A DNA stretch of 40,246 bases. Origin: Candidatus Dojkabacteria bacterium. GTDB taxonomy: Bacteria; Patescibacteriota; Dojkabacteria; SC72. Shown here piece after piece: positions 16,107 to 32,492 of the stretch. The notes below the pieces were generated by a model, which was not told the origin of the DNA, did not search any database, and worked only from the letters and a program-made list of their open reading frames with translations. A program made the position numbers and the translations under genes. Position 1 is the first letter of the stretch, and the number at the start of each line of letters is the position of its first letter. The stretch spans positions 1-40,246 of the forward strand of contig JAXGWV010000003.1 of assembly GCA_040773125.1 (NCBI GenBank). Direction: 5' to 3'.

Positions 16107-18791
16107 TTATTTTACTACTTTTATAAATATTCCTTCCTCTTGATTAATCTTTAATGAATCTCCAAAGATATAGTTACTTTCATCTTTGAATGTGTAATCA
16201 AAGAGACCTTTTTCTTTCTGCCATTGTCCTATCTGTTTAATTTTATTGAATTCTAAATTTTTTAATATATCTACAGAAGTAGTGCCTTTTCCGTCAAATA
16301 CAAAAGAGGGTACTAAGTTCCATCCTGCGGATTCAAGGATATTAGATGGAGAGATTCTGTAGCCTTTTACTGAGAATTCTGTTTCGTGTAAAGAAGAAAC
16401 CATGTACGATTTGCCCGATTTAAGGGAGAAATCATTTCCTTTTATACTTCCCTCTTCATATTTAACAACATGTACCCATTGTCCACTTTGATATTCTCCC
16501 ACGGCTATTACCCTTTTATCTGATATATTTATTAAGTCATAAGCACTTTTAGGAACTAGTGGATTATCAACATCAATTACTTCAAGAGGGCTTATAAAGC
16601 TAATTCCTTCCCTAATTACATATTTAGTACTCTCCATATGACAATTTTCAGCACTAATATCTGAGCGTATTACACCAGAGCACTCATAAGGCATTCTCAT
16701 TGAAAGAGAATTGTTGTAGTAACAACATACACTTTCAGTTTTGATAACTTTTTGATCGGTAGTGCAAGTAAATCCGTTTTTGGCATCCTTTTGAACCGTT
16801 TTGTTATTCCAATAGCAGATACATCCTTTTGGATTTCTACAGTACAAATCTTTATCTGTAACTTCAAGAATGGTTTTTTCCTCAGGAGGAGGAGTAGGAC
16901 CTTGTTCGGTACATACAAGTCCACATTCTACATCTTTAAAGTAATTTTCTGGTTTAATTGTTCCCTTAAAACATTCACATCCCCCAACATCTTTACAGGT
17001 TTCCCCTACCTTAATATCAGACTCCCCTGGGATGTTATCGTTTCCAGTACATTGAATACTGGGGTCTGGTGTAGGGTTAGGGCTTGGGTTCGGATTTGGA
17101 TTTGGGTTTGGTGTAGGGTTTTGTTCGGTACATACAAGTCCACACATTACATCTTTAAGGTAATTTTCTGGTTTAATTGTTCCTTTAAAACATTCGCATC
17201 CACCGACATCTTTACAAGTTTCTCCTACCTTAATATCAGACTCTCCAGGGATGTTGTCATTCCCAGTACATGGAACATTAGGATCTGGTTCCGGTTCTGG
17301 GTTGGTGTCCGACTTCCATTTGATAGTACATTTACTATCTGAAAAGGCCTTATTCTGTAAATGATAGGCATCACAAGTTTGAACACTTCTTGTTGAGCGG
17401 CATTGAGTATCTTTGATGTAACAAAGTGGGTCATTTTTACATTTCTCTTCTGATGTAAACATCCCTTCTCTTGCACAAGATTGGTATTTTTTAGTAGTTT
17501 TTTCACATACATTATTATTTGGGTTAATGTACCAACAGTAAGAGCCATCTTCAGGTGGCTGTGGATTAGTTCCTGAAGGATTTCCATTACAATCTCTATA
17601 CACACTGTTTGTAACTTGTTTGGATCTATCGCAGGCACTAGAACTCTTTGAAACATTCCATGGCCAACTTGGAAGAGTACCACCAGTTAGCCAGTTGTAA
17701 TAATTTCGAATTTCAGTGATATATGCTTTCCCATGTGCAATATTTTCATCATTACAGTACCCTCTTGCATACTTTGTAGCCCATCTCTCTTCTTCCGAGA
17801 TACCTTTGTCTGTGCAGTACCCTGAGATATAGTCGTCAGCCATTTGTACTGAAATCAATCGCTCCAATTGTTTTGTAAAATCTCTGCTTGGCACTCCACC
17901 TCCATTTATACCGAAATCTTGAACATTAGAATATTTAGCATACATACTTCCTGCTGATTCATGGACCCACAATGTTATTGGAAGTGCAGGATTTACTCCG
18001 GCTTCTATAGATTGACAATATACATCACTGTAACACTCTTGTGCATAGTGTCCTTTACAGCCTCCAATTAATCGATCAAGTAAGCTTTGTGTTTGGCTCT
18101 TAGTTGGAAGATATTGAGTATTGGTTATTGATATATTAGTTTTACAATTTGCTCCACTTTCTGCATATACAGGAGAGATAATCCCAAACAAGCTGGCCTC
18201 TAACTCATCTTGAAGAATAGCAGATGGAATAAACCGTGCATACTCAGTAACAGTATATCCACTACCTTTCAAATCTAATGCCCAAGTTCCATGGTAACTT
18301 GTGTAAACCATATACTTTTTCCCACCATTTTCTATCAAAATGAAATTACCTTTTTCTGATGTCCCTGTTTTTATATTGGGTAATTCTACTTTTGTGTTGT
18401 ATTCTTCAGTAGTAAATTCTAAATCAAAATCCCATTTCTGTTTTGGGGATTGAATACGAAATGTATATGTAGTGTCAGGGCGGAGTTGAGATAGAGTGGC
18501 TTCATAGAAGTAATTATCTTCTTTCATATTTTTGTAGAGGTTAGAATCCATCACTGAAATGTAAGGCATGTTTCTTTCTTTCTCTTTGTAAGAGAGAATA
18601 CTGTAAACACCCTCATTGTTTTTCCAATATATTGTTGCACCTGAAGATCCAATGTTTGTTACAACAATATCTGTGGGTTTTTCTTTGAGGATTTCAAAAA
18701 GCTTGTAATTTTGTACATAAAGCCAGGATGATGCAAAGAGAAGTACTAATGCAAATACAAACTTTAGTAAAAATATGTTCTTTTTCTTCAT
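16107..18791 (-). CDS. Large Cys-rich secreted/surface protein: FN3-like N-terminus, lysozyme-like domain, duplicated Cys module, Pro linkers
   Basis: Signal/TM helix; LRPDTTYTFRI; GVNPALPITLWVHES; PEPEP/PNPNP linkers; many cysteines. Confidence 0.8.
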   Translation of the reverse strand: MKKKNIFLLKFVFALVLLFASSWLYVQNYKLFEILKEKPTDIVVTNIGSSGATIYWKNNEGVYSILSYKEKERNMPYISVMDSNLYKNMKEDNYFYEATLSQLRPDTTYTFRIQSPKQKWDFDLEFTTEEYNTKVELPNIKTGTSEKGNFILIENGGKKYMVYTSYHGTWALDLKGSGYTVTEYARFIPSAILQDELEASLFGIISPVYAESGANCKTNISITNTQYLPTKSQTQSLLDRLIGGCKGHYAQECYSDVYCQSIEAGVNPALPITLWVHESAGSMYAKYSNVQDFGINGGGVPSRDFTKQLERLISVQMADDYISGYCTDKGISEEERWATKYARGYCNDENIAHGKAYITEIRNYYNWLTGGTLPSWPWNVSKSSSACDRSKQVTNSVYRDCNGNPSGTNPQPPEDGSYCWYINPNNNVCEKTTKKYQSCAREGMFTSEEKCKNDPLCYIKDTQCRSTRSVQTCDAYHLQNKAFSDSKCTIKWKSDTNPEPEPDPNVPCTGNDNIPGESDIKVGETCKDVGGCECFKGTIKPENYLKDVMCGLVCTEQNPTPNPNPNPNPSPNPTPDPSIQCTGNDNIPGESDIKVGETCKDVGGCECFKGTIKPENYFKDVECGLVCTEQGPTPPPEEKTILEVTDKDLYCRNPKGCICYWNNKTVQKDAKNGFTCTTDQKVIKTESVCCYYNNSLSMRMPYECSGVIRSDISAENCHMESTKYVIREGISFISPLEVIDVDNPLVPKSAYDLINISDKRVIAVGEYQSGQWVHVVKYEEGSIKGNDFSLKSGKSYMVSSLHETEFSVKGYRISPSNILESAGWNLVPSFVFDGKGTTSVDILKNLEFNKIKQIGQWQKEKGLFDYTFKDESNYIFGDSLKINQEEGIFIKVVK
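16902..17270. repeat. Two 150-bp intragenic direct repeats (16902-17051, 17121-17270) encoding a 50-aa six-Cys module
   Basis: CTGNDNIPGESDIKVGETCKDVGGCECFKGTIKPENY(F/L)KDV(E/M)CGLVCTEQ occurs twice. Confidence 0.95.
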
Positions 18792-18832
18792 TGCTGATTA
18801 ATAATAGCAGATTCAGTTATTTGTGTATATCT

Positions 18833-19417
18833 TTAATGAGATTCTAAATCAGAGAAGTCTCTTAACTCCTCCCATTTTTCTTCAAACTCATCTCGAGATT
18901 TAGCCTCTTCTACAAATTTATCGTATTGAGAATGAGAATTTATTCTTCTGTAATATTTAATTGGACACCAGTATCTTTCAGTTCTCGCACCAATTTCAGT
19001 ACAGAATCGAAAAAGATTGTTTACATAGCTACAGTATATGCAATTAAATTTTTCCATAGGATTGAGTAAACTTAATAGCTTTCTATCGTATACAAAGTAT
19101 TCGCTTTGTTTGACAGTTGGTATTCCGTAGAGTCTAAAACAAACTTGTTGGTATATTTGGACAGAGATATGAAGGATTACAGAGGGGATTATCATTGAAT
19201 ATATAAAGGGCATACTTAATAAATATTTCCAATTGAATTTTACTTTTGGAAACTTAATTCGTTTAACAATATTCTCTTCTTCAAGTATTTTATTAATATT
19301 TTCATCAAAAGTAGTACTAATTTTCTCTTTTAATTCTGTAAGTTTTATATATGCATCATTGTTTTTGGAGATTTCATTAATGTTCTCTTTTATCTTTTCA
19401 AGTAGGTTTTCTTTCAT
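18833..19417 (-). CDS. Conserved hypothetical membrane protein with CxxC
   Basis: Hydrophobic stretch then NCIYCSYVN and RTERYWCPIK. Confidence 0.75.
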   Translation of the reverse strand: MKENLLEKIKENINEISKNNDAYIKLTELKEKISTTFDENINKILEEENIVKRIKFPKVKFNWKYLLSMPFIYSMIIPSVILHISVQIYQQVCFRLYGIPTVKQSEYFVYDRKLLSLLNPMEKFNCIYCSYVNNLFRFCTEIGARTERYWCPIKYYRRINSHSQYDKFVEEAKSRDEFEEKWEELRDFSDLESH

Positions 19418-19525
19418 ATTAGTAATGTAAAAATTATTAGTTTATGCAAGGTATTATAGACTTTAATTGAAGATTTTACGATGTATATGTTTAATATCCA
19501 CCCAATTATCTAATATAATGTGTAT

Positions 19526-20257
19526 ATGGATGTTATTTATACAATTGATAGGGAGAAGGATATGAGTATGGTCTATACTATGCTTAAATCTGATGATCTT
19601 TCTGATAATTTGCAAAGAACAAAAAGAATGGGTATTAGTAGGCAATTGTTTAATAAGATAGCCGAGAGTAGCTCATATAATGAAGTAGAAAATGAAATTA
19701 ATGAACTTTACAATACAAAACTTTTAAATGACAAAGAACTACTTCTCTCTAAAACAAAACTATATCAGAGTAATTGGAATTTAATAAATGATATTTTCGA
19801 ACAAGAAACTGAAAGAGTAGTAGGAATGAAATGGAAATATGAAAAATACTATGTGATAGTATCATTGTTTCATCCTGGTGTTAGTAATATGTTGGGAGAC
19901 ACAGTATATCTCTGGATTTATGATGATTTAGATATCCATTTAAGGATAGCTGCTCATGAGTTACTAATGACCCATTTATGGCAATTCTTTTATAAAAACT
20001 TTCCAGAGGAGGATATTAATAATAATTGGAATAAATATTGGTCGGTAAATGAAATAACAACGACATTTATTTTAGGATTAGATAGTAAATTAAATAATCT
20101 ATGGTCAGATAGGATGAAGGGATACAAAAACTTTTTACAAAATTATCCTCAATTAAAAGAAGGAAGGGATTTATTAGTAAACAAGTATAAGAAGAGAAGT
20201 AGCTTTAAAGACTTTATTGATTATAGTCTACCAATGTTTACAACTCCGCGTATATGA
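19526..20257 (+). CDS. Hypothetical protein with degenerate HExxH-like motif; stop codon lies inside repeat R1
   Basis: IAAHELLMTH; TATAAT 6 nt before ATG 19526. Confidence 0.65.
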   Translation: MDVIYTIDREKDMSMVYTMLKSDDLSDNLQRTKRMGISRQLFNKIAESSSYNEVENEINELYNTKLLNDKELLLSKTKLYQSNWNLINDIFEQETERVVGMKWKYEKYYVIVSLFHPGVSNMLGDTVYLWIYDDLDIHLRIAAHELLMTHLWQFFYKNFPEEDINNNWNKYWSVNEITTTFILGLDSKLNNLWSDRMKGYKNFLQNYPQLKEGRDLLVNKYKKRSSFKDFIDYSLPMFTTPRI

Positions 20258-20324
20258 CATATTCCTTAACCTGAAGTTGGATTATGGAATTAATATATTC
20301 AAAATAGATTCGTTGATATATAAT
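20244..20324 (+). repeat. att-like module R1
   Basis: CTCCGCGTATATGACATATTCCTTAACC; first 7 nt identical to the tRNA-Asn 3' end (31914-31920); TATAAT at offset +75. Confidence 0.85.
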
Positions 20325-20331
20325 GCTAAAT

Positions 20332-20871
20332 ATGGAAATAGAAAAATTAGAATTAATTGATTTGCCAAAGACTGACGAATTACAAGTTACTACGAGGTTA
20401 TTTCCTATACCAAGTGCTATGGAAGATGGAAAGATACTAATACAAGAGATGAAAATAAATGGGAAGCTTAGCCCTGATATAGCTCTAATTGACGCTTCAG
20501 TTAATACTCCTGTCCAGTATTATGATGGAGTAAGTAAAATAACAGATATTTTTTACTCTACAACTGACAATAGACCAGTTGGTGTTATTTTAATGTCTCC
20601 GGAAGGAGAAATATCTTTGAAAGTATATAATCCCAAGACAGATGGTGGTCCTAGAGGATATTCAGTGACCAAGGGATGGACTATGCAAACAATTATTCCA
20701 GAAGGGACAACTTTAAGGTTCTTTGATTATCACTCTCCTAAGGGGTATGCAGAAAAGGAAGGGGATAAAATGTATGGGGAAACTGTAGTATCTACGGTAA
20801 CAGATGAAAAGGTATTAGAGAAATTTAAAGGAGCAGAAAAAGAGTTGTTAGATTATATGAAAAAGCTTTGA
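20332..20871 (+). CDS. Hypothetical protein (cassette 1 cargo)
   Basis: ~180-aa ORF; ATG 7 nt after the TATAAT of R1. Confidence 0.7.
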   Translation: MEIEKLELIDLPKTDELQVTTRLFPIPSAMEDGKILIQEMKINGKLSPDIALIDASVNTPVQYYDGVSKITDIFYSTTDNRPVGVILMSPEGEISLKVYNPKTDGGPRGYSVTKGWTMQTIIPEGTTLRFFDYHSPKGYAEKEGDKMYGETVVSTVTDEKVLEKFKGAEKELLDYMKKL

Positions 20872-20879
20872 GGAAAAAA

Positions 20880-20960
20880 CTTCTTGTATATGACATATTT
20901 CTGGACCTTAGAATATTTGTTAGCCTGAACTCTCAAGAGAATGACAAATTATTGTATAAT
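20880..20960 (+). repeat. att-like module R2
   Basis: CTTCTTGTATATGACATATTTCTGGACC preceded by an A-run; TATAAT at offset +75. Confidence 0.85.
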
Positions 20961-20989
20961 CTTTAATAAAATGTTATTACCTTACCAAT

Positions 20990-21670
20990 ATGACAAAACC
21001 CTTCCCAGCTGATGAAAGTAATTATATATTTACAGAGGGTATAGATTATTCAAAGACATCCGCAAATTCAATATGGGGAGATGAGGATATTTCTACCCAG
21101 AGTATGTTAAAGAAATTGGTTAAATCTGATAGCAAGTGGGTTAATCTTGCTTCGGGTGATGGAAGATACAACTGCTTGATTGCAAATATTGCAGGTGAGG
21201 TTACAGATGTAGATATTGATGAAGGCGCTTTAGAAAAACTTTTTTCTAATACTCCAGAGAATATTAGGAGTAAGCTTGTATTAAAATCATTTAATATTGT
21301 TAAGAAATTCCCTTTAGAAAGTAGTGCATATGATGGTTTATTTAGCTCTGGTACTCTTTATCTTTTTCCAGATGATGTATTTATGAATATTGCTAAAGAG
21401 ATATCAAGGATATTGAAGGTAGGAGGGAATATCGCATTAGAGTGGGCTATAAATATTAAAAGGATTTCTCCAACAGGAGAACCAGTTATCTTTGGTACGG
21501 AGCCTTTATATAATAGGGAGAGAGCAAGTAATGTTATACAGAAGGCTTTTCCAAATTTTAAAGTTAAGTTTATAGATGGAGAAAAGGTGTATTCTGATGA
21601 ATGTGAAGCCAACCCTCCATATCATTTTTACTGTGATACATTATTAATAGTGGGGGAAAAAATTCAATAA
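20990..21670 (+). CDS. Class I SAM-dependent methyltransferase (cassette 2 cargo)
   Basis: VNLASGDGR motif I, VDID, FPLESSAYDG, EISRILKVGG. Confidence 0.85.
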   Translation: MTKPFPADESNYIFTEGIDYSKTSANSIWGDEDISTQSMLKKLVKSDSKWVNLASGDGRYNCLIANIAGEVTDVDIDEGALEKLFSNTPENIRSKLVLKSFNIVKKFPLESSAYDGLFSSGTLYLFPDDVFMNIAKEISRILKVGGNIALEWAINIKRISPTGEPVIFGTEPLYNRERASNVIQKAFPNFKVKFIDGEKVYSDECEANPPYHFYCDTLLIVGEKIQ

Positions 21671-21673
21671 AAA

Positions 21674-21709
21674 CTCCCCGTATATGGCATATTCCTGAAC
21701 TTTAAGTTC
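21674..21709 (+). repeat. att-like module R3
   Basis: CTCCCCGTATATGGCATATTCCTGAAC, 3 nt after the methyltransferase stop. Confidence 0.85.
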
Positions 21710-21712
21710 TCT

Positions 21713-23017
21713 TTACCAAAGGGGGTTTTGTTCGTATATTGATTTTGTGGAGGGAGAGAGTACATTAAGAAATATATTTCTTGGTTCCTCTTCTCTTACT
21801 ACATTCCAACAAGAAAGAAGGATAGAAGCTTGGTTTGGAAAAATTTGGTCTCTTTGTATTTCTCCTGTATGAGTATTTACTGTGTCACCATCTCCAAAGA
21901 ATGGGTGAGTTAAACTTGGGAATTCCTGGTGGAGGCGTTTTAATGCATTAAGTGTATCTTGTGGATATACAATTCCCATATTTATTAGGGCTGAGATTGT
22001 TACAATAGGTTGAGGAATATATGGATCTGTAGATTCTCCTGTTTGTGGAACTCTGTATTCATAATATCTTCCATCTGGTCCCAATCCTGCAGAATATCCA
22101 TAGTGTCCATAGTTGTGTTGTTCTCCATACTCTCTTTGTAGTTGTATTGTACTTTTTATTGTTTCCTCCCACTGAGGACTAAATTTATCTTCTGGGATTA
22201 TTAGGGTTGGCCATCCTAGTGCAAAGTATTCTCCATCCCATGTACGTCTTCCTTTTCGTTGTTTTGAATCTTTAAAGAAACTATTTTCTGTTCGCCTGTT
22301 TATTAACTTACTCATTTCATGTAATATCTCATCTTCGCATAATAGATAGGCGATTCGTGCTTCTGAGAGAACATCATATTGCCAAGGTTCAAAACATTTG
22401 TCATTTATATTGTAGCATCCATTAAAAAACCCAGTTGAATGGTCAAACATAAAAGGTAGATCCATTTTATTGAGGTAAGTTTCAATAGAGTCAGAATATT
22501 CAGGAAATTGTACACCTGTCATTTTACTAAAAGCTATTAACCATGCCATGTCTACAGTAGAAATTTGTTGTTTTATTTTTATTTCTGTATTTGGCCACTG
22601 TTTTAGTATTGTTCCTGTTGATGGTTGTATAGAGTTAACAAATAGACCCTTATCTTCTCTTGTTTTAATAAAGATTTCAGGATCTTCTGTCATTTTTATA
22701 ATTGTAGTTATAGTTTTTCCTAATCTTTCATATGTTTCTTGTTCTGAAATAAAGCCCATTGAATATGCCCCACCTATAGAAGCTAAGAGAAACCCTATAT
22801 TTGTAGGACTAGTTTTATCTATTTTAGAAACTTCCCCCGTAGGGATACCATCATAAAGATGATGATGTAATTGATCTGAAGGGAGGCCTGTATCATTGTA
22901 TGTCATTTCACTAATGCTGTTCCAAGCCATCTTCGCATATTGAAGATATTCCTCTTTTATTTCAGGTGGGAGAGTTTCTATTACTTCTTTATCGTATATA
23001 GGTGATTCTAGACTCAT
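21713..23017 (-). CDS. DUF3131/glycoamylase-like glycoside hydrolase related to beta-1,2-glucan enzymes (cassette 3 cargo)
   Basis: TGLPSD, KTSPTNIG, ISTVDMAWL, YDVLSEARI motifs. Confidence 0.7.
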   Translation of the reverse strand: MSLESPIYDKEVIETLPPEIKEEYLQYAKMAWNSISEMTYNDTGLPSDQLHHHLYDGIPTGEVSKIDKTSPTNIGFLLASIGGAYSMGFISEQETYERLGKTITTIIKMTEDPEIFIKTREDKGLFVNSIQPSTGTILKQWPNTEIKIKQQISTVDMAWLIAFSKMTGVQFPEYSDSIETYLNKMDLPFMFDHSTGFFNGCYNINDKCFEPWQYDVLSEARIAYLLCEDEILHEMSKLINRRTENSFFKDSKQRKGRRTWDGEYFALGWPTLIIPEDKFSPQWEETIKSTIQLQREYGEQHNYGHYGYSAGLGPDGRYYEYRVPQTGESTDPYIPQPIVTISALINMGIVYPQDTLNALKRLHQEFPSLTHPFFGDGDTVNTHTGEIQRDQIFPNQASILLSCWNVVREEEPRNIFLNVLSPSTKSIYEQNPLW

Positions 23018-23078
23018 TATTGGTAATTATAGATGAAAATATAAATTATAGATAGGAAACTTGTGGAGGTTTAAAAAA

Positions 23079-23189
23079 CTCCTTGTACTGAGTATTGTGC
23101 GAACTGAAATAATAACATTGTTGTTGCAAGATGTGGGTAATGAAGAGGTGCAGTCTTTAGTTAGAAATATACTCATTAAAGAGGCTTAA
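23079..23189 (+). other. R4 / putative attL carrying the orphan 3' end of the serine recombinase gene
   Basis: AAAAAA-CTCC-TTGTACTGAGTATTGTGCGAAC; open 36-codon frame LLVLSIVRTEIITLLLQDVGNEEVQSLVRNILIKEA* in register with the recombinase CTC codon. Confidence 0.75.
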
Positions 23190-23267
23190 TAGAACTTTAC
23201 TTTTTTAAGTTAGAGATCCCCTTATATTAGATAGTATATGGGAATATAACTATGTATAACTAGAGTA

Positions 23268-24161
23268 TTAAATACTCATTTCTCCATTGTAAATCTTTTT
23301 GATTAAGTCTTTAGCATATTCTAATTCTTCACCATTGCTTACAAAGACACCTGTGTTTCCTGTCCCCCAGTGTCCTTTGCCTTTGACATCCTTTACATTA
23401 GATTTTGGATTGTCAATATCTTCATAATCTAAAGATAAGTAAACATCTAATTTTTCCTTATTAATTACTATGCAAGCCAAATTCTTAATTGTTTTATATG
23501 CCCAATAATTTTTTAGTTCCTTCTTTTGTATGTCATCACCCAAGTTAAGGATATATTCATCTAACTCTTCAGTATAATCAACAATGTTTTTATTAGCAGT
23601 TTTTAGTTTGTATTCAATTCTGTCATGAGGATACTTGTCACCAGAGATATGTGAACTTCTAGGTTTTTCACTTACTGCTGATGCCAACTGTATCATCAGG
23701 AAGTCGTTTTCAAATAAGGTATATCTAATTAACTCTATGTTTCTATTAATCTGTTTTATAGCATTATCATCATATTTATTGAAATCAGTTGCTATACATA
23801 ATAATCTAGGATTATCCCAATCAATATCTACTTTTGTACCGATTTTCTCTCTACACAGAATATCAAAATCAGCTTTGTGTTCCATGAACCAATCTAGGTA
23901 GAAGAGACCCTGATTAATAACATTGGTGTTAGAGTCTAGTTTGTATTCTATAATTACAGGACAGTTATTTTCATCCAATCCTAGTGTATCTACTCTTCCA
24001 TTATCAATAATATATTCAGAGGCTAAAAATCTTACTCCAAAGAGCTCTTCTAAGTTCTTCTCCACAATATCTTGTATCTGCTTTTCTAACCTTAGGCTTT
24101 TAGCTTTTATCTGTGTACTTTTATTTGTTGGAGAGATATTAAAGAGTTTTATTTCTGACAT
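23268..24161 (-). CDS. NucS/DUF91-like PD-(D/E)xK endonuclease with DUF5655-like C-terminus
   Basis: LEKQIQ..E, GRVDTLGLD, IIEYK, QGLFY; C-terminal GHWGTG. Confidence 0.8.
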   Translation of the reverse strand: MSEIKLFNISPTNKSTQIKAKSLRLEKQIQDIVEKNLEELFGVRFLASEYIIDNGRVDTLGLDENNCPVIIEYKLDSNTNVINQGLFYLDWFMEHKADFDILCREKIGTKVDIDWDNPRLLCIATDFNKYDDNAIKQINRNIELIRYTLFENDFLMIQLASAVSEKPRSSHISGDKYPHDRIEYKLKTANKNIVDYTEELDEYILNLGDDIQKKELKNYWAYKTIKNLACIVINKEKLDVYLSLDYEDIDNPKSNVKDVKGKGHWGTGNTGVFVSNGEELEYAKDLIKKIYNGEMSI

Positions 24162-24348
24162 TTATATCTATTCTTAATTTACATTAATGTTGTAATTATA
24201 TATCATTACTCATATTTATAAAAATAGGCTTAAGATATTAAAACCTATTAAATATAACCATTGCTATATTATTGGAAGGAGTTAGACTTAAAAAATTCAT
24301 TAATATGAAGTATACTAGCAATGTAATTACACGAAGGAATGTAAAGAT

Positions 24349-26928
24349 ATGGCCAAAGAAGCTCAAGCAAGAATTAAAATTAATGAACTGTTAACTGCTT
24401 CAGGTTGGAGATTACTTGATGACCCAGAAAAAGGGAGAGCTAATGTTTCTTTAGAGAGTAATGTAAAGATTGAAAATAATCCAGGGGACAATTTTGAAAA
24501 TGTTGAAACTAGAAATGGATTTGTAGACTATCTCTTGTATGATGCAAATAACTATCCAATATGTGTCTTAGAAGCAAAATCAGAAGATAGACATCCTTTA
24601 GATGGTAAAGAACAGGCAAGAGACTATGCTAACTCCTTAGGTTCAAATGTAAGGTACATAATACTTTCTAATGGAAACATGCACTTCCTTTGGGATATGA
24701 AGCTAGGAAATCCTACTTCCATATCTCATTTTCCAACACTAGAATCATTAGTATCCTCAAAAGATTTTGTACCAGATAAAAATAGGTTAGTTAATACACA
24801 GGTTGGAAGTGATTACATAGCTCTTACTCAAGATCCTGATTACAAGCTTGATCCTAGGTGGAATACAGAAGAAGGCAGAAATCAGATGATTGAAAGAGAA
24901 GGATTGAGATTTCTAAGACCATATCAGTTAAATGCAATTATAACTGTTCAAAAAGCTGTAGCAGAAGATAAGAATAGATTTTTGATGGAAATGGCAACAG
25001 GTACAGGTAAGACCTTGCTATCTGCAGCCCTGATTAAACTCTTTCTTAAGACTAAAAATGCTAGAAGAGTACTCTTTCTTGTAGATAGAATTGAATTAGA
25101 AAATCAAGCAAAAAGGAACTTTGATGCATATTTAAAACCTGACTTCACAACAGTTGTTTACAAGGAAGCTAGGGATGAGTGGAAGAAAGCAGAAATAGTT
25201 GTAACAACAATACAGAGTATCTCTTCAAACAACAAATACCTTAGGCTCTTCTCTCCAAATGACTTTGATTTAATTATCTCTGATGAGGCACATAGGTCTA
25301 TCTCTGGAAACAGTAGAGTTATCTTTGAGTACTTCATAGGATACAAGCTTGGTTTAACTGCTACCCCTAAGGACTATCTTAAAAAGGTTAATCAAGAAGA
25401 TTTAGCTGAACAGGACCCAAGAGAACTAGAAAGAAGAATACTTCTATCTACTTACAAAACTTTTGGATGCGAAAGTGGGGAACCAACATTTAGATATAGT
25501 CTTGTAGATGGTGTAAGAGATGGCTTTTTAGTTAATCCTAGAACAATAGATTGTAGAACAGAGGTTACAACTCAATTACTTTCAGAGGAAGGTTTTGTTA
25601 TGACACAAGATCCAGATTCAGAAGAGGGAGAATATATTAGTACTGATGAGCAAGGAAACCAAGTGGTATATAAAGCAAGAGACTTTGAAAAAAAATTCTT
25701 TAGTGAAGAGACAAATAGAAAGTTTGTAGAAGCCTTTATGCAAAATGCTCAAAGAGATCCAATATCTGGGGAGATTGGTAAATCAATAATTTTTTGTGTC
25801 AGTCAGAGACATGCATCAAAGATTACAAATCTACTTAATGAATATGCTATGCAAATGTATCCAGATAAATACCAGTCAGACTTTGCCTTACAGATAACCT
25901 CAAATGTACAAGATGCTCAGCTTTATTCAGTACAGTTTGCTAATAATAATCTAAGAGGGCTATCAAAGTTTCTTGATGGATACAAATCAAGTAAGACCAG
26001 AGTATGTGTAACTGTTGGTATGATGACAACAGGATATGATTGCGAGGACCTATTAAATGTAGCTCTTCTTAGGCCAATATTTTCTCCTACAGATTTTGTA
26101 CAGATAAAAGGTAGAGGTACAAGAAGATTCAGATTCAGATATTCACAAAGAGATGGTATGGCAGTTAATGAAATTGTAAAAGATAAGAAGTATTTTAAAC
26201 TCTTTGATTTCTTCGCTAACTGTGAATACTTTGAAGAAGAGTATCCATATGATGAGATATTACCGTTACCAAAACAGAGAAAAGGAACTACAGCAGATCC
26301 TCGTGGTCCATTTGGACCTATAGGAGGAAAAGATTCTGAAGGTATCTATGGTGGAACTGATGTAATAACGGAATTTAATGAAATAGAAATAGATGAAAAT
26401 GGTATGAGAATTGATAGAGAGCTTTACTCAAGTAAATTTGAGGAGAAGCTTAAAGAAGTGTATACAGAGATTCCAGAGTTTAAAGAGGCTGTAGATACTA
26501 ACGACTATGAGACAGCTCAGTATGTTGTTACATCTCAACTCTTTGATAAACCAGAGGAGTATTACAATATGGATAGATTAAGAGAGAGTTACAAGAGTGA
26601 TAGAAGAATATTCTTATCAGATATTTTAGAGAAGGTCTTTAAAGGAAAGGCATTCAAAACAAAGAATGATTTAGCAGAGGAAGATTTCCAAAACTACTTG
26701 GTAGTTAATAATGTTCCTGCTGAAAACTTCTATAATGTAAAAGAGTTCTTTAAACTATATGTTGCTGATGAGACTTTTAGAAGGGATATAAATACGAATG
26801 AAATAAATAAATATGCAAATGATCCTAAACTTTTTGAAGTAATAAATAAATTGGGGAAGGAGAATATCCAGTATGTTACAGACTATGTAAAGGACAATGT
26901 TCAAATAAATAAATATTACAGCCAATAA
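24349..26928 (+). CDS. hsdR: Type I restriction enzyme R subunit
   Basis: VDYLL..VLEAK nuclease motif, LRPYQ, MATGTGKT, DEAH, LTATP, TTGYD, QIKGRGTR. Confidence 0.93.
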   Translation: MAKEAQARIKINELLTASGWRLLDDPEKGRANVSLESNVKIENNPGDNFENVETRNGFVDYLLYDANNYPICVLEAKSEDRHPLDGKEQARDYANSLGSNVRYIILSNGNMHFLWDMKLGNPTSISHFPTLESLVSSKDFVPDKNRLVNTQVGSDYIALTQDPDYKLDPRWNTEEGRNQMIEREGLRFLRPYQLNAIITVQKAVAEDKNRFLMEMATGTGKTLLSAALIKLFLKTKNARRVLFLVDRIELENQAKRNFDAYLKPDFTTVVYKEARDEWKKAEIVVTTIQSISSNNKYLRLFSPNDFDLIISDEAHRSISGNSRVIFEYFIGYKLGLTATPKDYLKKVNQEDLAEQDPRELERRILLSTYKTFGCESGEPTFRYSLVDGVRDGFLVNPRTIDCRTEVTTQLLSEEGFVMTQDPDSEEGEYISTDEQGNQVVYKARDFEKKFFSEETNRKFVEAFMQNAQRDPISGEIGKSIIFCVSQRHASKITNLLNEYAMQMYPDKYQSDFALQITSNVQDAQLYSVQFANNNLRGLSKFLDGYKSSKTRVCVTVGMMTTGYDCEDLLNVALLRPIFSPTDFVQIKGRGTRRFRFRYSQRDGMAVNEIVKDKKYFKLFDFFANCEYFEEEYPYDEILPLPKQRKGTTADPRGPFGPIGGKDSEGIYGGTDVITEFNEIEIDENGMRIDRELYSSKFEEKLKEVYTEIPEFKEAVDTNDYETAQYVVTSQLFDKPEEYYNMDRLRESYKSDRRIFLSDILEKVFKGKAFKTKNDLAEEDFQNYLVVNNVPAENFYNVKEFFKLYVADETFRRDINTNEINKYANDPKLFEVINKLGKENIQYVTDYVKDNVQINKYYSQ

Positions 26929-26930
26929 TT

Positions 26931-29378
26931 ATGTTAAATGGAGATACAAAAAGAAAAATAAAAAATGCAAGAGATATTCTAGTAGGGAAGATTCCTGTTC
27001 CTACAGCACAAGTAGAACAGATTACTCTTGCACTTATGTATAAGTTCATGAGTGATATGGATGAACAAGCCAAGAAGTTAGGAGATAAGACTAGCTTCTT
27101 TATGGGAGAGTATGAAAAATATTCATGGGATAAGATAACAGACACCTCTTTGTCAGCATATGATAGGGTGGCTTTGTATTCTGAAGGATTAGAGAAGATG
27201 AATAACAATCCCAATGTACCACAGCTGTTTAGAGACATATTTAAAGGGGCTTTCTTGCCCTTTAAAGACCCAGAAACATTAAAGCTGTTCTTAGACCAGA
27301 TAAATGAAATTGAGTATACTCAAAGTGAAGATTTAGGTGATGCATATGAGTACTTATTATCTGTAATGGGCTCTCAGGGCGATGCAGGGCAATTCAGGAC
27401 CCCTAGACACATCATAGACTTCATAGTAGATATTGTAGATCCTAAGAAGGAGGACAAGATACTAGATCCTGCCTGTGGTACTGCTGGATTCCTTATCTCT
27501 GCATTCAAACATATTCTAAAACACAATACCACTAAAGATTCTAAGATTCTGGGAGATGCACTTTCTCCTATGGATAGAAGAAACTTAACAAAGAATTTTG
27601 TAGGCTATGATATTTCTCCTGAGATGAGAAGATTATCATTGGTGAATATGTATTTACATCAGTTCCCAGACCCACAGGTATATGAATATGATACCTTAAC
27701 TAGTACAGATCATTGGGATGAAGATTTTGATTGTATATTAGCTAATCCTCCTTTTATGACTCCTAAAGGTGGTATAAGACCTCACAAGAGATTTGCAATA
27801 CAGGCAAATAGGTCAGAAGTCTTATTTGTAGATTATATAATGGAACATCTTAGTACTTCTGGCAAAGCAGGTATTATTGTTCCAGAGGGTATTATTTTTC
27901 AATCTTCTAATGCATACAAGAATTTAAGAAAGTTACTTGTAGAAGATAATTATCTTTGGGGTGTAGTATCACTTCCTCAGGGAGTATTTAACCCATATGC
28001 GGGTGTTAAGACTAGTGTATTACTTTTAGACAAGAATATTGCCAAGAAGACTGATAATATCTTGTTTGTAAATGTGGAAAATGATGGTTTTGATTTAGGT
28101 GCACAGAGAAAGGAGAATGGGAAGAATGATTTACCTAAGATTTTAGATGGTTTGAAGAAGTACAAGAAATGGATATTGAATGATGAAGAAATCAAGGAAG
28201 ACGAATTATTTAATACCCAAATCATTGGAAAAAGTAGGATTAAGGAGAGTGGAGATTACAATTTAAATGGTTATAGGTATCAAAATAGCGAAAGAGGTAT
28301 TTATGTGAAGGGAAAATGGGAGAGTGTCTTGTTAAGAGATATTCTTGAAGATGTGAGATATACTCACAAGATCAAAAAAAGTGAGTATCTACCAGAGGGG
28401 GAATATCCAATAATTGATCAATCAAGTAATTTTATAGCAGGCTACTGTGATAATAAAGATTTTCTTTACAATGTAACCAAACCAGTTGTTATATTTGGTG
28501 ATCATACTAGAGAGCTTAAGTATGTTGATTTTGATTTTGTATTAGGTGCTGATGGTGTAAAGATTCTTCAATTTAAAGAAGTTGCTTCAGCAAAGTATTT
28601 ATACTATGTGCTAAAAAACACTCCAATCAAGAGTTTGGGTTATTCCCGTCATTTCAAGGAATTAGTCAGGTTAGAAATTCCTCTTCCCCCAATAGAAGAA
28701 CAAAAGAAAATAGTAGAAGAACTTGATAGATACCAAAGGGTTATAGATGGAGCAAGAATGGTTATAGATAATTGGAAGCCTGAGATAGAGATAAACCCAG
28801 AGTGGAAAATAATTAAATTAAAAGAGGTATGTGCACTTGTAAGGGGAGTAACTTATTCAAAGGATGATGAAGTTGAGAATGGAGGTAAAATAGTGCTTAG
28901 GGCAAACAATATTGATTTAATGGGGGGGCTTAATCTTACTGACTTAAAATATATTAAGAAAGAGCTAAAAGAAACTCAGAAGCTCAAAAAGGGAGATATA
29001 TTTATTTGTATGTCTAGTGGAAGTAAATCTCATATAGGCAAAGTTGCTTTCATAGACAATGATACAGACTATTATCTTGGAGGATTTATGGGTTGTGTAA
29101 GAGCATATGATAATATAAATGCAAAATATCTTTATTACATACTGAATTCACAGGCATTCAACAAATATTTAAGAGATCAGATTAGTGGTGTGAATATAAA
29201 TAATATAAATCAGGGAATTTTTTATAATTTTGGCATACCTCTTCCTTCTATAGAGGAACAAGAGGATATTGTAGAGAAGTTATCCAAGCTGGAAGATTCC
29301 GTTTCAAAGAATAAAGAGATAATCAATTTCTTTGAAAAGAAATCTGCAGATGTAATTTCAAAAATTTTCAATGGTTAA
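26931..29378 (+). CDS. hsdM: Fused type I N6-adenine methyltransferase and specificity subunit (HsdM-HsdS)
   Basis: GQFRTP, DPACGTAGFL, ANPPF, then two TRDs each ending in IPLP(P/S)IEEQ..IV. Confidence 0.92.
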   Translation: MLNGDTKRKIKNARDILVGKIPVPTAQVEQITLALMYKFMSDMDEQAKKLGDKTSFFMGEYEKYSWDKITDTSLSAYDRVALYSEGLEKMNNNPNVPQLFRDIFKGAFLPFKDPETLKLFLDQINEIEYTQSEDLGDAYEYLLSVMGSQGDAGQFRTPRHIIDFIVDIVDPKKEDKILDPACGTAGFLISAFKHILKHNTTKDSKILGDALSPMDRRNLTKNFVGYDISPEMRRLSLVNMYLHQFPDPQVYEYDTLTSTDHWDEDFDCILANPPFMTPKGGIRPHKRFAIQANRSEVLFVDYIMEHLSTSGKAGIIVPEGIIFQSSNAYKNLRKLLVEDNYLWGVVSLPQGVFNPYAGVKTSVLLLDKNIAKKTDNILFVNVENDGFDLGAQRKENGKNDLPKILDGLKKYKKWILNDEEIKEDELFNTQIIGKSRIKESGDYNLNGYRYQNSERGIYVKGKWESVLLRDILEDVRYTHKIKKSEYLPEGEYPIIDQSSNFIAGYCDNKDFLYNVTKPVVIFGDHTRELKYVDFDFVLGADGVKILQFKEVASAKYLYYVLKNTPIKSLGYSRHFKELVRLEIPLPPIEEQKKIVEELDRYQRVIDGARMVIDNWKPEIEINPEWKIIKLKEVCALVRGVTYSKDDEVENGGKIVLRANNIDLMGGLNLTDLKYIKKELKETQKLKKGDIFICMSSGSKSHIGKVAFIDNDTDYYLGGFMGCVRAYDNINAKYLYYILNSQAFNKYLRDQISGVNINNINQGIFYNFGIPLPSIEEQEDIVEKLSKLEDSVSKNKEIINFFEKKSADVISKIFNG

Positions 29379-30024
29379 AAATATACAAAAGCAAAAAACA
29401 TTAAAAGATTTTATTAAAGAGACAACATTTAAACCTGACTCTACAAGAGATGATAATTCCTTCTTTAGTGCATATTATGGACCGAAACCATATGGAGAAT
29501 CTTTAGATGATATTTTCAAAATAATTAGAGATATTTATGATAACAATAAGAAACCAGATGACTTATTTTGGGACTTTACTACAAACATTTTACATACATA
29601 TATGGAGTTTGAAGATCACATTGCTTTAAAGATTTCATCAATAGAGAAATACTTTGATCCAGACCCTCCTCTAAGTGCTATATTAGAGTTAGAATCTTCA
29701 ATTTCCCCAATTTACTATACAGGAAGTAAATGTGCCAAATATCTACTTGCAAACTCAGGAGGCAAACTAACGAATGATGATATAGAGTTTCTAGCAAAAT
29801 ACAAAGGGACAAGAAATAAGATTTTTGAACACAACTTAGATCCAGAGGAATATCCTTTTGTGGTAAGGGTCTTTCATTTTTCAGTATTTTCAACAGACTC
29901 AGAATTAGAGATAGAGTTGATTAACTCTAAAAATGAAAAAGAAGAAAGAGGTTTTATTGACTATTATGATGATAATTACAAGTTAATAGAAATTTGTATT
30001 AGATATTTGAAGTCAATTAAGTAA
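29371..30024 (+). CDS. Hypothetical protein with HEPN-like RxxxxxH motif
   Basis: RNKIFEH at residues 148-154; start overlaps the hsdMS end. Confidence 0.6.
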   Translation: MVKNIQKQKTLKDFIKETTFKPDSTRDDNSFFSAYYGPKPYGESLDDIFKIIRDIYDNNKKPDDLFWDFTTNILHTYMEFEDHIALKISSIEKYFDPDPPLSAILELESSISPIYYTGSKCAKYLLANSGGKLTNDDIEFLAKYKGTRNKIFEHNLDPEEYPFVVRVFHFSVFSTDSELEIELINSKNEKEERGFIDYYDDNYKLIEICIRYLKSIK

Positions 30025-30083
30025 GAAAAATACCTAAAAAACTAGGGAAAAACTTGGAAAAACATTGATATTTTTAACAAAAA

Positions 30084-30296
30084 ATGGCAAAAACATACAC
30101 AAATCTAAAGAAAAACCAATCAACATCTGAACTAAGGAAATTCATATCCTCTATCATAGACATAGCTACTAGACCACAAATATTCTCTCAATGGATTAAA
30201 GAAAAGAAGTCCTGGAGACACATTCTTAATGTACCTGAAAAGATAAAAGTAAGAGAGGAATTTGAAATAAAGAAGATTCCAAAAGAAGAAAAATAG
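30084..30296 (+). CDS. Small basic protein upstream of the recombinase
   Basis: 70-aa Lys-rich ORF; position only. Confidence 0.5.
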   Translation: MAKTYTNLKKNQSTSELRKFISSIIDIATRPQIFSQWIKEKKSWRHILNVPEKIKVREEFEIKKIPKEEK

Positions 30297-30324
30297 TTTT
30301 TCGGCGCTTATAGGGGATTGAAAC
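30296..30324 (+). repeat. Solitary CRISPR-repeat-like sequence
   Basis: GTTTTTCGGCGCTTATAGGGGATTGAAAC: GTTT start and ATTGAAAC end; single copy. Confidence 0.4.
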
Positions 30325-30365
30325 AACAACATTCTTTAGCATAAAAATAGCTAAAAACAACAAAA

Positions 30366-31952
30366 ATGGAACAAAATACCTCAAAAATTAAAGTATTTGC
30401 ATACCTTAGAAAATCTACTAAGCAAGAGAGAGAAGGTACACCTGAGAAACAACCCAACTCCCTTAACTATCAAAGAAGAGTAGTTAAAGAGATTGCAGAG
30501 AGGAACAATCTAAAGATTGTTAACCAATTTGAGGATAAAGAGTCAGGATACAAAGCATATGTAAGGAAAGACTTTAATAGAATGTGTGAGCTACTAGATG
30601 AACAGGGCTCAGAAGGTGAAATTAAAGGTATAGTTTGTAGTGAACACAACAGATTAGCAAGAAACTTTGGAGATGGAGGCAGGATACTCTGGTATTTACA
30701 GAATGGAGAGATAGAAGCTGTGTATACCCATGACAAAATATTCTCTAACAGTAGCAGTGATCAAATGATGTTGGCTATTAATTTTGCAATGGCTAAGAAC
30801 TCTAGTGATGAAACAAGCTATAGAATGAAGCAAACATGGAAGAGTAAAGCTATTGCAGGAATGCCACCAAACCAAAGAATAGTTGGATATAAATATGTTG
30901 GAAACAAAGGTCAGAAAGTATGGGTTAAAGACCCCAAAACAGCCCCATTGATTGTAAAAGTATTTGAAACATATGCAACTGGAGAATATACGATAGAAGA
31001 GTTGGCAAAATATGCTGCTTCAATAGGACTTGTTAATAAAAGAAATGATAATAAACCATATGGAGAAAATACAGTAAGAGAATGGTTATCAAAGAAAGAA
31101 TATATTTGTATCTTTGAGTATGAAGGGGAAAGACATAAAGGAATGTATCCTAGGATGATAAGTGATGATTTATTCTACAAAGTTCAAGATGTTCTTCTAC
31201 TTAGATCTCATAAGAGGGGAAAAACCAAAAACATGTATGCATACTCTCCTAAACTTATTAAGTGTGGTAAGTGTGGTGAATATATGACAGGAGACATTCA
31301 AAAGGGAATAGTGTATTACAAATGTCCTCACAGAAAGGAGCCATGTAAGAGTAATCCTAATGAAAGGCTTCCTCACCTTAAAGAAACTTTTGTTGATGAA
31401 AGTATTATGAAGAAGTTAAAACAGATAGAAATATCAGAAGAGAAATGGAAAGAACTCTCTGCATTAGTTAAAGCAAATTATCAATATGAGGTAGCTCAAC
31501 ACGAGGAGGATATTAGAGAGATGAGAACTAAGATAGGTTATGAAGAAGGTTTTAAGAAACAGTATTCAAAAGCTATATCAGAGCTAAGGATTAAAGGTAC
31601 ATTGACTAAGGAAGAAGAAGAGGAATTGAAAGGCTATCAAGATTTAATATTAGATTGTAACAAAACTATTGAGTTGTATCAGGAAGCAATAATCAAAGCT
31701 AAGGAAATTATGAATGAGATTCCATTTGAAATGGAAGGGTTCCTAGAGTCTTTGAAGGTAGCTAGTGCAAGATTTAACCAAGGTACACCTGCTAATAAAA
31801 GGGTGATTGTAGAGACCCTTTGTGCGAACTTAATATGGGATGGTAAAAATATTGTCTGGAATTGGAAAAACAAGTATAAGAAACTAATAAATCAGGAAGA
31901 AGACATAGATTGGCTCCGCGACCAGGACTCGAACCTGGAACCAAACGGTTAA
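30366..31952 (+). CDS. Large serine recombinase (resolvase + recombinase + zinc ribbon + coiled coil)
   Basis: YLRKST catalytic motif, ESG, NRLARN, CGKCG...YYKC..C; last 13 codons (WLRDQDSNLEPNG) are antisense tRNA. Confidence 0.93.
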   Translation: MEQNTSKIKVFAYLRKSTKQEREGTPEKQPNSLNYQRRVVKEIAERNNLKIVNQFEDKESGYKAYVRKDFNRMCELLDEQGSEGEIKGIVCSEHNRLARNFGDGGRILWYLQNGEIEAVYTHDKIFSNSSSDQMMLAINFAMAKNSSDETSYRMKQTWKSKAIAGMPPNQRIVGYKYVGNKGQKVWVKDPKTAPLIVKVFETYATGEYTIEELAKYAASIGLVNKRNDNKPYGENTVREWLSKKEYICIFEYEGERHKGMYPRMISDDLFYKVQDVLLLRSHKRGKTKNMYAYSPKLIKCGKCGEYMTGDIQKGIVYYKCPHRKEPCKSNPNERLPHLKETFVDESIMKKLKQIEISEEKWKELSALVKANYQYEVAQHEEDIREMRTKIGYEEGFKKQYSKAISELRIKGTLTKEEEEELKGYQDLILDCNKTIELYQEAIIKAKEIMNEIPFEMEGFLESLKVASARFNQGTPANKRVIVETLCANLIWDGKNIVWNWKNKYKKLINQEEDIDWLRDQDSNLEPNG

Positions 31953-31985
31953 CAGCCGTTCGCTCTACCATTGAGCTATCGCGGA
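31911..31985 (-). tRNA. tRNA-Asn (GUU) with CCA
   Basis: TCCGCGA...AACGG-CTGTTAA-CCGTT...CCAGG-TTCGAGT-CCTGG-TCGCGGA-G-CCA; TATAAT upstream at 31998-32003. Confidence 0.97.
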
Positions 31986-32018
31986 TTAGCTGGGTCTATT
32001 ATATCCATCTCCTCTTCA

Positions 32019-32492
32019 TTATTCAATATCTTCATCTTCAAGATCATCATAGTATCTGAAATCAAAGAAATCTTTTAGGTCTTCAAATGATCTACGACTA
32101 TCACATGGGAAGAGTGTATATATAATGGAATTGCCCTCTCCTATCTCAAATTGCTCACAGTATGGCACAGATTCCTCATCTATTGTTTGATGCATTTTGA
32201 TAGAGTGTTTAATCTGGTTGATAATACCCTTTGTTAATTGTAAGTCATAGACAGGAATCCTCTCTTCGTTGTTTCTTGCTCTAGTTTGGATATTTCCTAA
32301 AAGTCCATCGACTAGTAGATATCTAGCTGTAGGAGTAATCCTTCCATATTGTCTGAATTTTTCTATATAAATAAATGAACCATCTGGAAGTTTCTTTCGT
32401 TCAAAAAATCGTTCATATCCCTTTAGGAGTTCAGCTGGAGAGTATGACTCTCCGTCACCATCTTCATAATCATCCTCATATTCGATTGGCAT
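32019..32492 (-). CDS. Acidic hypothetical protein
   Basis: 157-aa ORF with no recognised motif. Confidence 0.6.
   Translation of the reverse strand: MPIEYEDDYEDGDGESYSPAELLKGYERFFERKKLPDGSFIYIEKFRQYGRITPTARYLLVDGLLGNIQTRARNNEERIPVYDLQLTKGIINQIKHSIKMHQTIDEESVPYCEQFEIGEGNSIIYTLFPCDSRRSFEDLKDFFDFRYYDDLEDEDIE

Follow-up and report, generated by a model that had tools for sequence, protein, structure and literature searches.

We wanted to find out what three direct repeats of 37 nt, named R1, R2 and R3, represent in a contig of Candidatus Dojkabacteria bacterium (GCA_040773125.1, contig JAXGWV010000003.1). The entire 40,246-bp contig is called the window below; the genome to which it belongs amounts to 674 kb in 70 contigs, with a marker-gene completeness of 90.7%. 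Every R repeat comes after the stop codon of a gene, the stop of gene A lying inside R1, and the identity to R1 over the 37 nt is 73% for R2 and 86% for R3. Their 17-nt core, GTATATGRCATATTYCT, is present in exactly three copies in the window, and the same three are the only ones in the whole genome, all on the + strand. An earlier, sequence-only reading had described the repeats as relics of left attachment sites (attL) of a sister recombinase family.

With a probability of about 0.8, we favour the explanation that R1-R3 are left-end, attL-type junctions of mobile gene cassettes which large serine recombinases (LSRs) stacked at a tRNA-Asn gene, each junction carrying a spare recombinase tail. 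The junctions have one anatomy: a short A-rich left arm, the CT crossover dinucleotide, and a conserved arm of ~45 nt which would be the P' arm of the attachment site. This explanation is carried by the reading frame across the junctions, the pairing of site types with two recombinase families, the breakpoints of present and absent units at CT(CC) cores, and the shuffling of cassettes among genomes. The features of the array are as follows.

19520-20257, + strand: gene A, 245 aa, no Pfam family above cut-off; outermost cassette gene
20242-20360, + strand: R1, core 20242-20278, CT 20244-20245, P' arm and 38-codon tail to 20360; heads the gene B cassette
20323-20871, + strand: gene B, 182 aa, no Pfam family; translation probably starts at the second ATG, 20332
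20878-20966, + strand: R2, core 20878-20914, CT 20880-20881, 28-codon tail with TTGTATAAT; heads the gene C cassette
20990-21670, + strand: gene C, 226 aa, methyltransferase domain (Pfam Methyltransf_11, Methyltransf_25)
21672-21742, + strand: R3, core 21672-21708, CT 21674-21675, truncated 22-codon tail; heads the glycoside-hydrolase-like cassette
21713-23017, - strand: glucoamylase/DUF3131-like gene, 434 aa, cargo of the R3 cassette; both Pfam matches at or below the curated cut-offs
23079-23189, + strand: R4, P' arm and cognate 36-codon tail (LLVLSIVRTEIITLLLQDVGNEEVQSLVRNILIKEA, then a stop) of the resident recombinase; true attL of the resident element
23079-31913, + strand: resident LSR-1 element, 8,835 bp, with a NucS-like nuclease, type I restriction-modification R and M-S, a 217-aa open reading frame (ORF) and the recombinase (Pfam)
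30366-31952, + strand: LSR-1, large serine recombinase, 528 aa as integrated; Resolvase, Recombinase and Zn_ribbon_recom domains
31911-31985, - strand: tRNA-Asn(GTT), predicted by ARAGORN; forms the B' arm, crossover CT 31914-31915

LSR-2 and the tails of R1-R3

The frames that begin at CT in R1, R2 and R3 are open for 38, 28 and 22 codons, exactly as the sequence-only reading had reported. The resident recombinase, LSR-1, is the sole Resolvase-domain gene of the genome. Related genomes (G numbers below; L numbers denote loci or contigs) contain a second LSR family, LSR-2, of 496-516 aa, which is ~27% identical to LSR-1, has the same three domains (Resolvase, Recombinase, zinc ribbon) and is not found in the window's genome. 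In G005, G063, G087, G078 and G081, LSR-2 ends with …(A/G)ATTGG followed by CTCCGCG at tRNA-Asn, and the two families have one insertion point in common, the 3' end of this tRNA gene. The R1-R3-type tail reads LPVYDIFLNLKFNFE…, while the R4-type tail has the motif LxVLxxVRT.

Three loci tie R-type sites to LSR-2, in line with the earlier idea of a sister family. The short element of G056 consists of an R-type site, an XRE-like gene, an ImmA/IrrE-like gene and a 110-codon LSR-2 remnant, and is followed by tRNA-Asn. In L122 three genes directly behind an R-type site are 61, 46 and 74% identical to those of a module in the LSR-2 element of G005. The LSR-2 remnant of G032 has 66 open codons, …IKPFDVILKSQNNHIW (…SQNNHIW), and runs in frame into the R-type arm LPIYDIFLNIKFNMANELSLFLRYNEQYLT and a stop; the junction reads …HIW followed by LPIYDIFL…, the arm being LPIYDIFLNIKFN… up to its stop. 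Behind this arm come a 199-aa gene and tRNA-Asn, so that a one-gene unit lies exactly between the TGG of LSR-2 and the tRNA. G092 has an 18-codon LSR-2 remnant, …KSNDNHIW, followed by LPVYDIFL at the contig end. These data support the assignment of R1-R3 as attL-type sites of LSR-2. The proposed continuation of the recombinase frame into the tails was thus recovered in G032 and in the contig-cut G092. Recombinases ending in W-L-x-(V/I)-Y-D-I-F-L, as predicted, do occur in these two genomes, but as remnants and not as an intact enzyme.

Two further loci attracted our attention. In L305 (G005:C3, 1751-1955) the anticodon loop of tRNA-Asn is interrupted by a ~290-nt insertion, which matches the group I intron model RF00028 with 65.9 bits (gathering score 50) and lies beside the LSR-2 gene L305:1902-3446; the LSR-2 frame of G005 reads on into this insertion, …WLRDQDSNLEPNGYTLIKKLDYIFFIDIKYP and a stop. 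In L048 (G088:C8), ~60-100 nt upstream of a gene B homologue, …GGGATTGG is followed by a degenerate R-like stretch (~15/21, by eye) at the contig end, which may be an old junction of a recombinase end and a P' arm.

The codon-position bias that had been suggested as a check was found. We collected 23 R-type sites from 15 sources and used 21 (one near a contig end and one degenerate were dropped). Frame 0 was open for 22-38 codons in 21/21 sites; frame 1 ran into a stop within 15 codons and frame 2 within 9. At codon positions 1/2/3, the entropy of nt 27-48 was 7.2/5.7/10.6, and codon 10 encodes Leu by five codons (CTG, CTT, CTA, TTA and TTG). Among single-nucleotide codon differences, 477/958 (50%) were synonymous in frame 0, compared with 235/948 (25%) and 149/906 (16%) in the other frames; these are pairwise counts from related sequences and hence not independent samples. 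Despite this relatedness, the direction is clear, and the counts point to coding in the recombinase frame.

Similarity between R1 and R2 had also been claimed to extend over ~27 codons without gaps. At codons 24-27 (LIYN/LLYN) it is of another kind: LLYN in the tails is TTG TAT AAT. An exact TATAAT followed the crossover on its right at a distance of 46-140 nt in 15/19 units with a + strand right-hand gene, and in 2/9 units with a minus-strand one, located at nt 128-134 in both (four sites were left out because their contigs ended too soon). Given this sequence and its strand bias, what R1 and R2 share at codons 24-27 is in all likelihood a promoter box and not protein conservation.

The resident element, its target and R4

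The final 13 codons of LSR-1 are read from the 3' half of the tRNA-Asn gene, and the CCA encoded by this tRNA gene is at the same time the Trp codon TGG of the recombinase (31911-31913). Relatives of LSR-1 (46-100% identical) adjoin tRNA-Asn in 6/6 genome loci, one of the tRNAs being partly N-masked. Further, 19 metagenome loci were identified; nine are cut before the 3' end of the recombinase gene, and in all ten with a complete 3' end it adjoins tRNA-Asn. TGG was the last codon in 14/16 LSR-1 loci, and two metagenome relatives had ATG or GTG. A search with residues 330-528 of LSR-1 gave eight proteins, and all six that were retrieved have tRNA-derived ends. We compared 24 tRNA-Asn loci within the genus: CTCCGCG is preceded by TGG in 11, and in another 11 the flank is A-rich and encodes no CCA (of the remaining two, a contig end interrupts the first and the second was unmatched by the pattern). 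Where a recombinase or its remnant lies beside tRNA-Asn, the final TGG of the enzyme supplies the CCA that these latter 11 loci do not encode.

The list of repeats in the sequence-only reading was correct for R1-R3 and incomplete, as there is a fourth, diverged site, R4. Its left end reads AAAAAA followed by CTCCTTGTACTGAGTATTGTGCGAACT… at 23079. From TGG into R4, the LSR-1 frame gives the 36-codon tail listed above; the integrated gene reads LRDQDSNLEPNG and a stop from the tRNA instead, or LRE and a stop where the tRNA gives an early stop. An R4-type arm also bounds the element in G034, G011 and contig L278. The empty site of G072 reads GAGGAGGATTTAAA followed by the CTCCGCG of the tRNA, and in L278 the same left arm, GAGGAGGATTTAAA, is joined to an R4-type arm. 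Therefore the exchange point would lie inside CTCC, immediately behind the place that TGG takes. One short, identical core is common to attL, to the right site (attR) and to the empty chromosomal site (attB), and the site is the precise boundary of the element (G072 compared with L278); in G011, attL and attR have only CT in common.

We compared four distinct copies of the R4-type tail. The first ~50 nt are invariant except for nt 5-7 (codons 2-3), and the stop comes at 36-37 codons. Beyond ~50 nt, there are 5/3/14 variable sites at codon positions 1/2/3; past the stop the numbers are 15/18/19. Loci of LSR-1 relatives with 45-50% identity were also inspected. Six of them have one candidate left end each, CTCCGCG..CTTC....GTGCGAACTT, with tails like LRVLQIVRTFLEKEY…, and the attL sites of these relatives are of the R4-like kind. 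The pattern gave no candidate in L269, L280 and L266 (3/9), and no additional site turned up in these relatives' loci when they were scanned with an nhmmer profile built from R-type sites.

These arrangements indicate a recombinase gene that spans the attachment site of the free element (attP). TGG would be the last codon before the crossover, and the P/P' form of the gene would continue for 28-37 codons into the P' arm. Integration would swap this tail for the tRNA-encoded residues. LSR-1 pairs with P' arms of the R4 type, and LSR-2 with those of the R1-R3 type.

The 5-nt motif CGAAC occupies nt 17-21 of the tRNA arm, and seven P' arms of LSR-1 have it at nt 22-26; with so short a motif, this is weak evidence. 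For R-type arms, we read a shift of 6 or find its register ambiguous. A published study places the zinc-ribbon motif ~5 bp farther from the centre in attP than in attB half-sites (PMC3783163), and the CGAAC offset hints at the same shift. Inverted-repeat symmetry between the recombinase-proximal P arms and the P' arms was judged by eye only; it was off by 1-3 nt and was not used.

Several other properties of the element and its surroundings were recorded. The R subunit of its type I restriction-modification system (window 24349-29378) shares 90-93% identity with its counterparts in G034 and G011, while the fused M-S protein shares only 62-67%, which suggests swapped specificity domains. Immediately before the recombinase gene lies the 217-aa ORF (29371-30024), which matches no Pfam family and whose counterpart in G034 is 83% identical; judging by its position, we would guess that it is a candidate directionality factor or regulator. 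Recombinase 3' remnants of ~65 nt lie just to the left of tRNA-Asn in L038 (G085), L039 (G082) and L043 (G084), and all start at one point (CTAAGCTGGGA…) though they come from two LSR-1 subtypes. On the other side, the array is flanked by a gene for an 894-aa secreted protein (16107-18791, minus strand), which contains a 202-nt direct repeat (83% identical, 219 nt apart, 16891-17311).

Cassettes across genomes and metagenome contigs

A 23-nt version of the repeat, searched with up to 3 mismatches, was found at 37 sites in 30/100 genomes of the family, representing 13/21 genera, and the reversed control gave 0, so that the repeat is no product of chance. Outside the family, the 23-nt core was present with up to 2 mismatches in 2/121 genomes of the class. 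The 17-nt core was also searched in public genome and viral contigs. Among the matches listed, at least 197 of which were scored, 4 reach 29 or more of 36 positions; these are L114, L122, L144 and L164, and the other listed matches look like chance.

The R variant goes with the gene to its right, while what lies beyond that gene changes from locus to locus. Gene B is headed by the 38-codon variant …IFKI.SL.YN..YG.RK.R.. in the window, L302 and L303; in L305 a gene B paralogue is headed by a related, shorter one (29 codons). In L164, L302 and L309 a minus-strand cupin gene comes after the variant …NFLLDIQ. Gene B is followed by gene C in the window, by a GNAT gene in L302, by cupin in L164, by gene A in L304 and by the tRNA in G088, where its homologue directly adjoins tRNA-Asn at the place that R2 takes in the window. 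Its stop lies 8-13 nt before the next crossover in 6/6 copies. Homologues of gene A adjoin R-type sites in G047 (L309) and G057 (L304), and R-type sites come after gene C homologues in L144, L306 and L302.

Gene B is present in 12/100 genomes of the family and in 5/21 genera (6 with the window's own). It is 81-90% identical in nine loci across genera, whereas proteins of the host flank are only 47-71% identical to a same-genus genome. In G058, six R-type sites are crowded into 3.5 kb, neighbouring sites being separated by a single gene or gene fragment. In the complete genome G062, a single R-type site and a single gene precede tRNA-Asn. Cassettes without a recombinase were found in G062, L114, L144 and G032. 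The cargo includes an EamA transporter, GNAT, cupin and NUDIX proteins, an endonuclease/exonuclease/phosphatase protein, a methyltransferase and a glucoamylase-like protein.

The R site points to the 3' end of tRNA-Asn in 9/9 loci in which both are visible. The left arm ends in TGG at two LSR-1 attL sites and nine R-type sites, two of the latter with a recognisable LSR-2 end; such arms are what insertion into the attR of an earlier element would be expected to leave. A cassette consists of a P' arm, often a TATAAT box, and one gene in either orientation, and ends 3-13 nt past the stop. New units would enter at the tRNA-proximal junction, between the left neighbour and the tRNA. If so, the array 19520-31913 would record successive insertions, with the LSR-1 element as the latest. 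The order of arrival would be the gene A unit (its site eroded), R1-gene B, R2-gene C, R3-hydrolase gene and the LSR-1 element. Its late arrival would fit its near-identity to a copy in another host: metagenome contig L265 matches window 23072-32011 at 99.25% over 8,940 nt, and its left flank is different and its right one 74% identical, which means that the same element sits in another host.

We infer that LSRs catalyse the movement of recombinase-less cassettes. Such units might be paired as attP-like with attB-like sites; alternatively, a circle with an attL-type site might enter attR with the help of a directionality factor. The tails of the R sites are probably translated and relevant to enzyme function.

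We also placed contigs, not raw reads, of four metagenome runs on window 18700-32100. An 11,145-nt contig of run X6 contains 19389-21668 followed by 23074-31938, so that the 1,405-bp R3 unit is absent, with 9 shared letters. Another X6 joint, 23078 to 31914, lacks the 8,835-nt resident element. In run X1, which may be the source sample, the joint 21673 to 31914 (4 shared letters) brings gene C next to the tRNA, and 10,240 nt with R3 and R4 are absent. All three absence breakpoints are at CT(CC) cores, and the joints share 4-9 letters.

Some joints were left uninterpreted, having short sides or unknown letters between them (20264 to 21669, 21699 to 31913/4, 21709 to 21668, 20989 to 29113 and 30814 to 31905), and may stem from arrays of other organisms. 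The last of these comes from run X6 (depth 81.8, one side of 34 letters); it leaves out 1,090 nt of the recombinase gene and may represent a strain with a truncated recombinase, like the remnants in other genomes.

Alternative explanations and known systems

Several points weigh against our explanation. No intact recombinase with a P'-arm tail was present in the six protein homologues or the ten complete metagenome loci, and viral contigs contained no recombinase relative and no junction of TGG with an R-type arm. Both in-frame junctions of LSR-2 with a tail are truncated remnants (66 and 18 codons), and the synonymous counts come from related sequences. The array of the window is without LSR-2 and without an intact R site upstream of gene A, where a possible degenerate site was unsupported by alignment. 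No circle junction was seen in the contigs of the four runs, although contigs seldom show such joints, and the observed joints may come from strains that had never acquired the units, and not from excision. Moreover, canonical LSRs recombine only attP with attB, or attL with attR in the presence of a directionality factor. This does not account for the insertion of a recombinase-less unit with only a clear P' half-site, nor for the continued usability of the tRNA junction.

The sequence-only reading had gone further and proposed that excision between the tRNA core and any R site would give the resident enzyme up to five C-termini. Spelled out in full, LSR-1 with a directionality factor would excise between attR and any of R1-R4, releasing circles of different size in which its gene gains alternative C-termini, as an isoform switch. 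We regard this as unlikely. It agrees with the direct orientation of all four sites, in frame with the TGG codon, with the coding signature of the tails, and with the contig forms that lack R4 to attR (8,835 bp) and R3 to attR (10,240 bp; X1). However, the arms of R1-R3 belong to LSR-2, and the two types of P' arm share only about half of their first 27 nt. The R3 tail is truncated at 22 codons, and the R1 tail runs into gene B. The suggested search for joints of the tRNA core with R arms gave only the two forms named above, with no circle junction and no joint of R1 or R2 with the tRNA in the contigs of the four runs. Insertions alone can yield all four observed forms; since all three joints can be explained by insertion at the tRNA-proximal junction, they do not prove excision.

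Accretion and decay without mobile cassettes seems a rather poor explanation too. Here R1-R3 would be fossils of tandem full-length elements that random deletions have eroded to one gene each. Internally deleted elements do exist: in G056 and G032 an R-type site is still accompanied by XRE-like and ImmA-like genes and by what remains of a recombinase, G087 retains one gene with a recombinase remnant, and recombinase 3' remnants lie beside the tRNA in G082, G085 and G084. Decay does not predict the same right end 8-13 nt past the stop in 6/6 gene B copies with six right-hand neighbours, nor the same R-plus-gene units in different orders, nor the one-gene unit exactly between the LSR-2 TGG and the tRNA in G032.

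It is highly improbable that the repeats are regulatory elements of an operon (a promoter, terminator or RNA motif) and not recombination sites. Each repeat is intergenic, and the strand bias of TATAAT given above (15/19 against 2/9) would suit such a role. Nevertheless, single-strand DNA of R1-R4 folds no better than shuffles (z -0.55 to +0.57), and a generic promoter and terminator scan was at background (23 promoter-like sites, 19.7 expected). In addition, the conserved core coincides with element boundaries and with the presence/absence breakpoints, and R sites are directed at the 3' end of tRNA-Asn in all nine loci. It is barely credible that islands of the tyrosine-integrase type, which carry a tRNA fragment, displaced the 3' end of tRNA-Asn and left the repeats as its decayed copies. 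R1 and the tRNA do have CTCCGCG in common, and the R consensus matches the tRNA at ~21/34 positions (aligned by eye). Yet repeats across 13 genera are far more alike mutually than to the tRNA, their conserved part GTATATGACATATTCCTGAAC is not tRNA sequence (only CTCC(G/C)CG and scattered positions match), and only serine recombinases were found at the locus.

Among known systems, the composite island of the staphylococcal cassette chromosome (SCC, SCCmec), with CcrAB/CcrC at the 3' end of rlmH, is by analogy the closest. Two publications describe SCC composite islands with LSRs, tandem units, internal att repeats and recombinase-less units, the farthest unit being taken as the oldest (PMC13739063; PMC6222049). 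The likeness consists in LSR insertion at the 3' end of one conserved gene, in tandem units with internal att repeats (4 sites in the window, 6 in G058), and in recombinase-less units of which the outermost is read as the oldest. In contrast to SCC, the target here is tRNA-Asn and not rlmH, and the units are often single genes of 0.5-1.4 kb. Here, moreover, the recombinase ORF crosses attP so that its C-terminus changes on integration, and two LSR families ~27% identical use one crossover. As is typical of LSR attachment sites, an LSR gene with its Resolvase, Recombinase and zinc ribbon domains lies at the other end of the element in the window and G005, with LSR-2 remnants opposite an R-type site in G056 and G032.

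The array resembles integrons in having one-gene cassettes, each with its own recombination site, that are shuffled among genomes at a fixed insertion point. It differs from them in many respects. No tyrosine integrase was present among the Pfam-scanned ORFs of 5295-33985, and the loci carry serine recombinases. The R sites do not fold as attC-like hairpins, as the z scores above indicate, and the site is at the head of the cassette, not at its tail. The cassettes have their own promoter-like box and either orientation, and the recombinase rides on the mobile unit instead of being fixed beside the array.

An attachment site inside the integrase gene is known from archaeal 'suicidal' tyrosine integrases of the SSV type, where integration splits the gene (PMC8371274). 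The resemblance lies in the position of the site inside the ORF; here, the enzymes are serine recombinases of a bacterium, and only the last 28-37 codons are swapped while the catalytic and DNA-binding domains stay intact. Integrative and conjugative elements and cis-mobilizable elements (CIMEs) accumulate at the 3' ends of tRNA or other genes, with recombinase-less, att-flanked units beside an integrative element, which is similar to the situation described here. In mycobacteriophages with integration-dependent immunity, attP lies in a gene, and integration alters the C-terminus of the repressor and hence its behaviour; the change of a protein C-terminus is the shared trait. Both systems differ from ours in using tyrosine recombinases, and the split gene of the phages is the repressor, not the recombinase.

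It is possible, and we propose it only tentatively, that the locus is a serine-recombinase counterpart of an integron, with the 3' end of tRNA-Asn as capture site in one family of bacteria with small genomes, where two LSR families would stack promoter-bearing one-gene cassettes. The arm of each cassette would act as an exchangeable last 'exon' of the recombinase, and rewriting of the C-terminus could set the activity or direction of the enzyme. Such rewriting would occur through insertion of a cassette behind an integrated recombinase gene, or through excision at another site. We found no description of an LSR gene spanning attP, or of serine-recombinase cassette arrays at tRNA-Asn, in open-access full texts or bioRxiv.

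In summary, if our explanation is true, the stacking and shuffling of single genes at one chromosomal site extends beyond the integrons of tyrosine recombinases, and LSRs perform it in very small genomes, in which accessory genes are scarce. A recombinase gene lying across its own attP would give a built-in difference between the integrated and the free enzyme, and thus a testable handle on direction control in serine integrases. The short, defined target at tRNA-Asn, together with two divergent enzymes that use one crossover, may be of interest for serine integrase tools.

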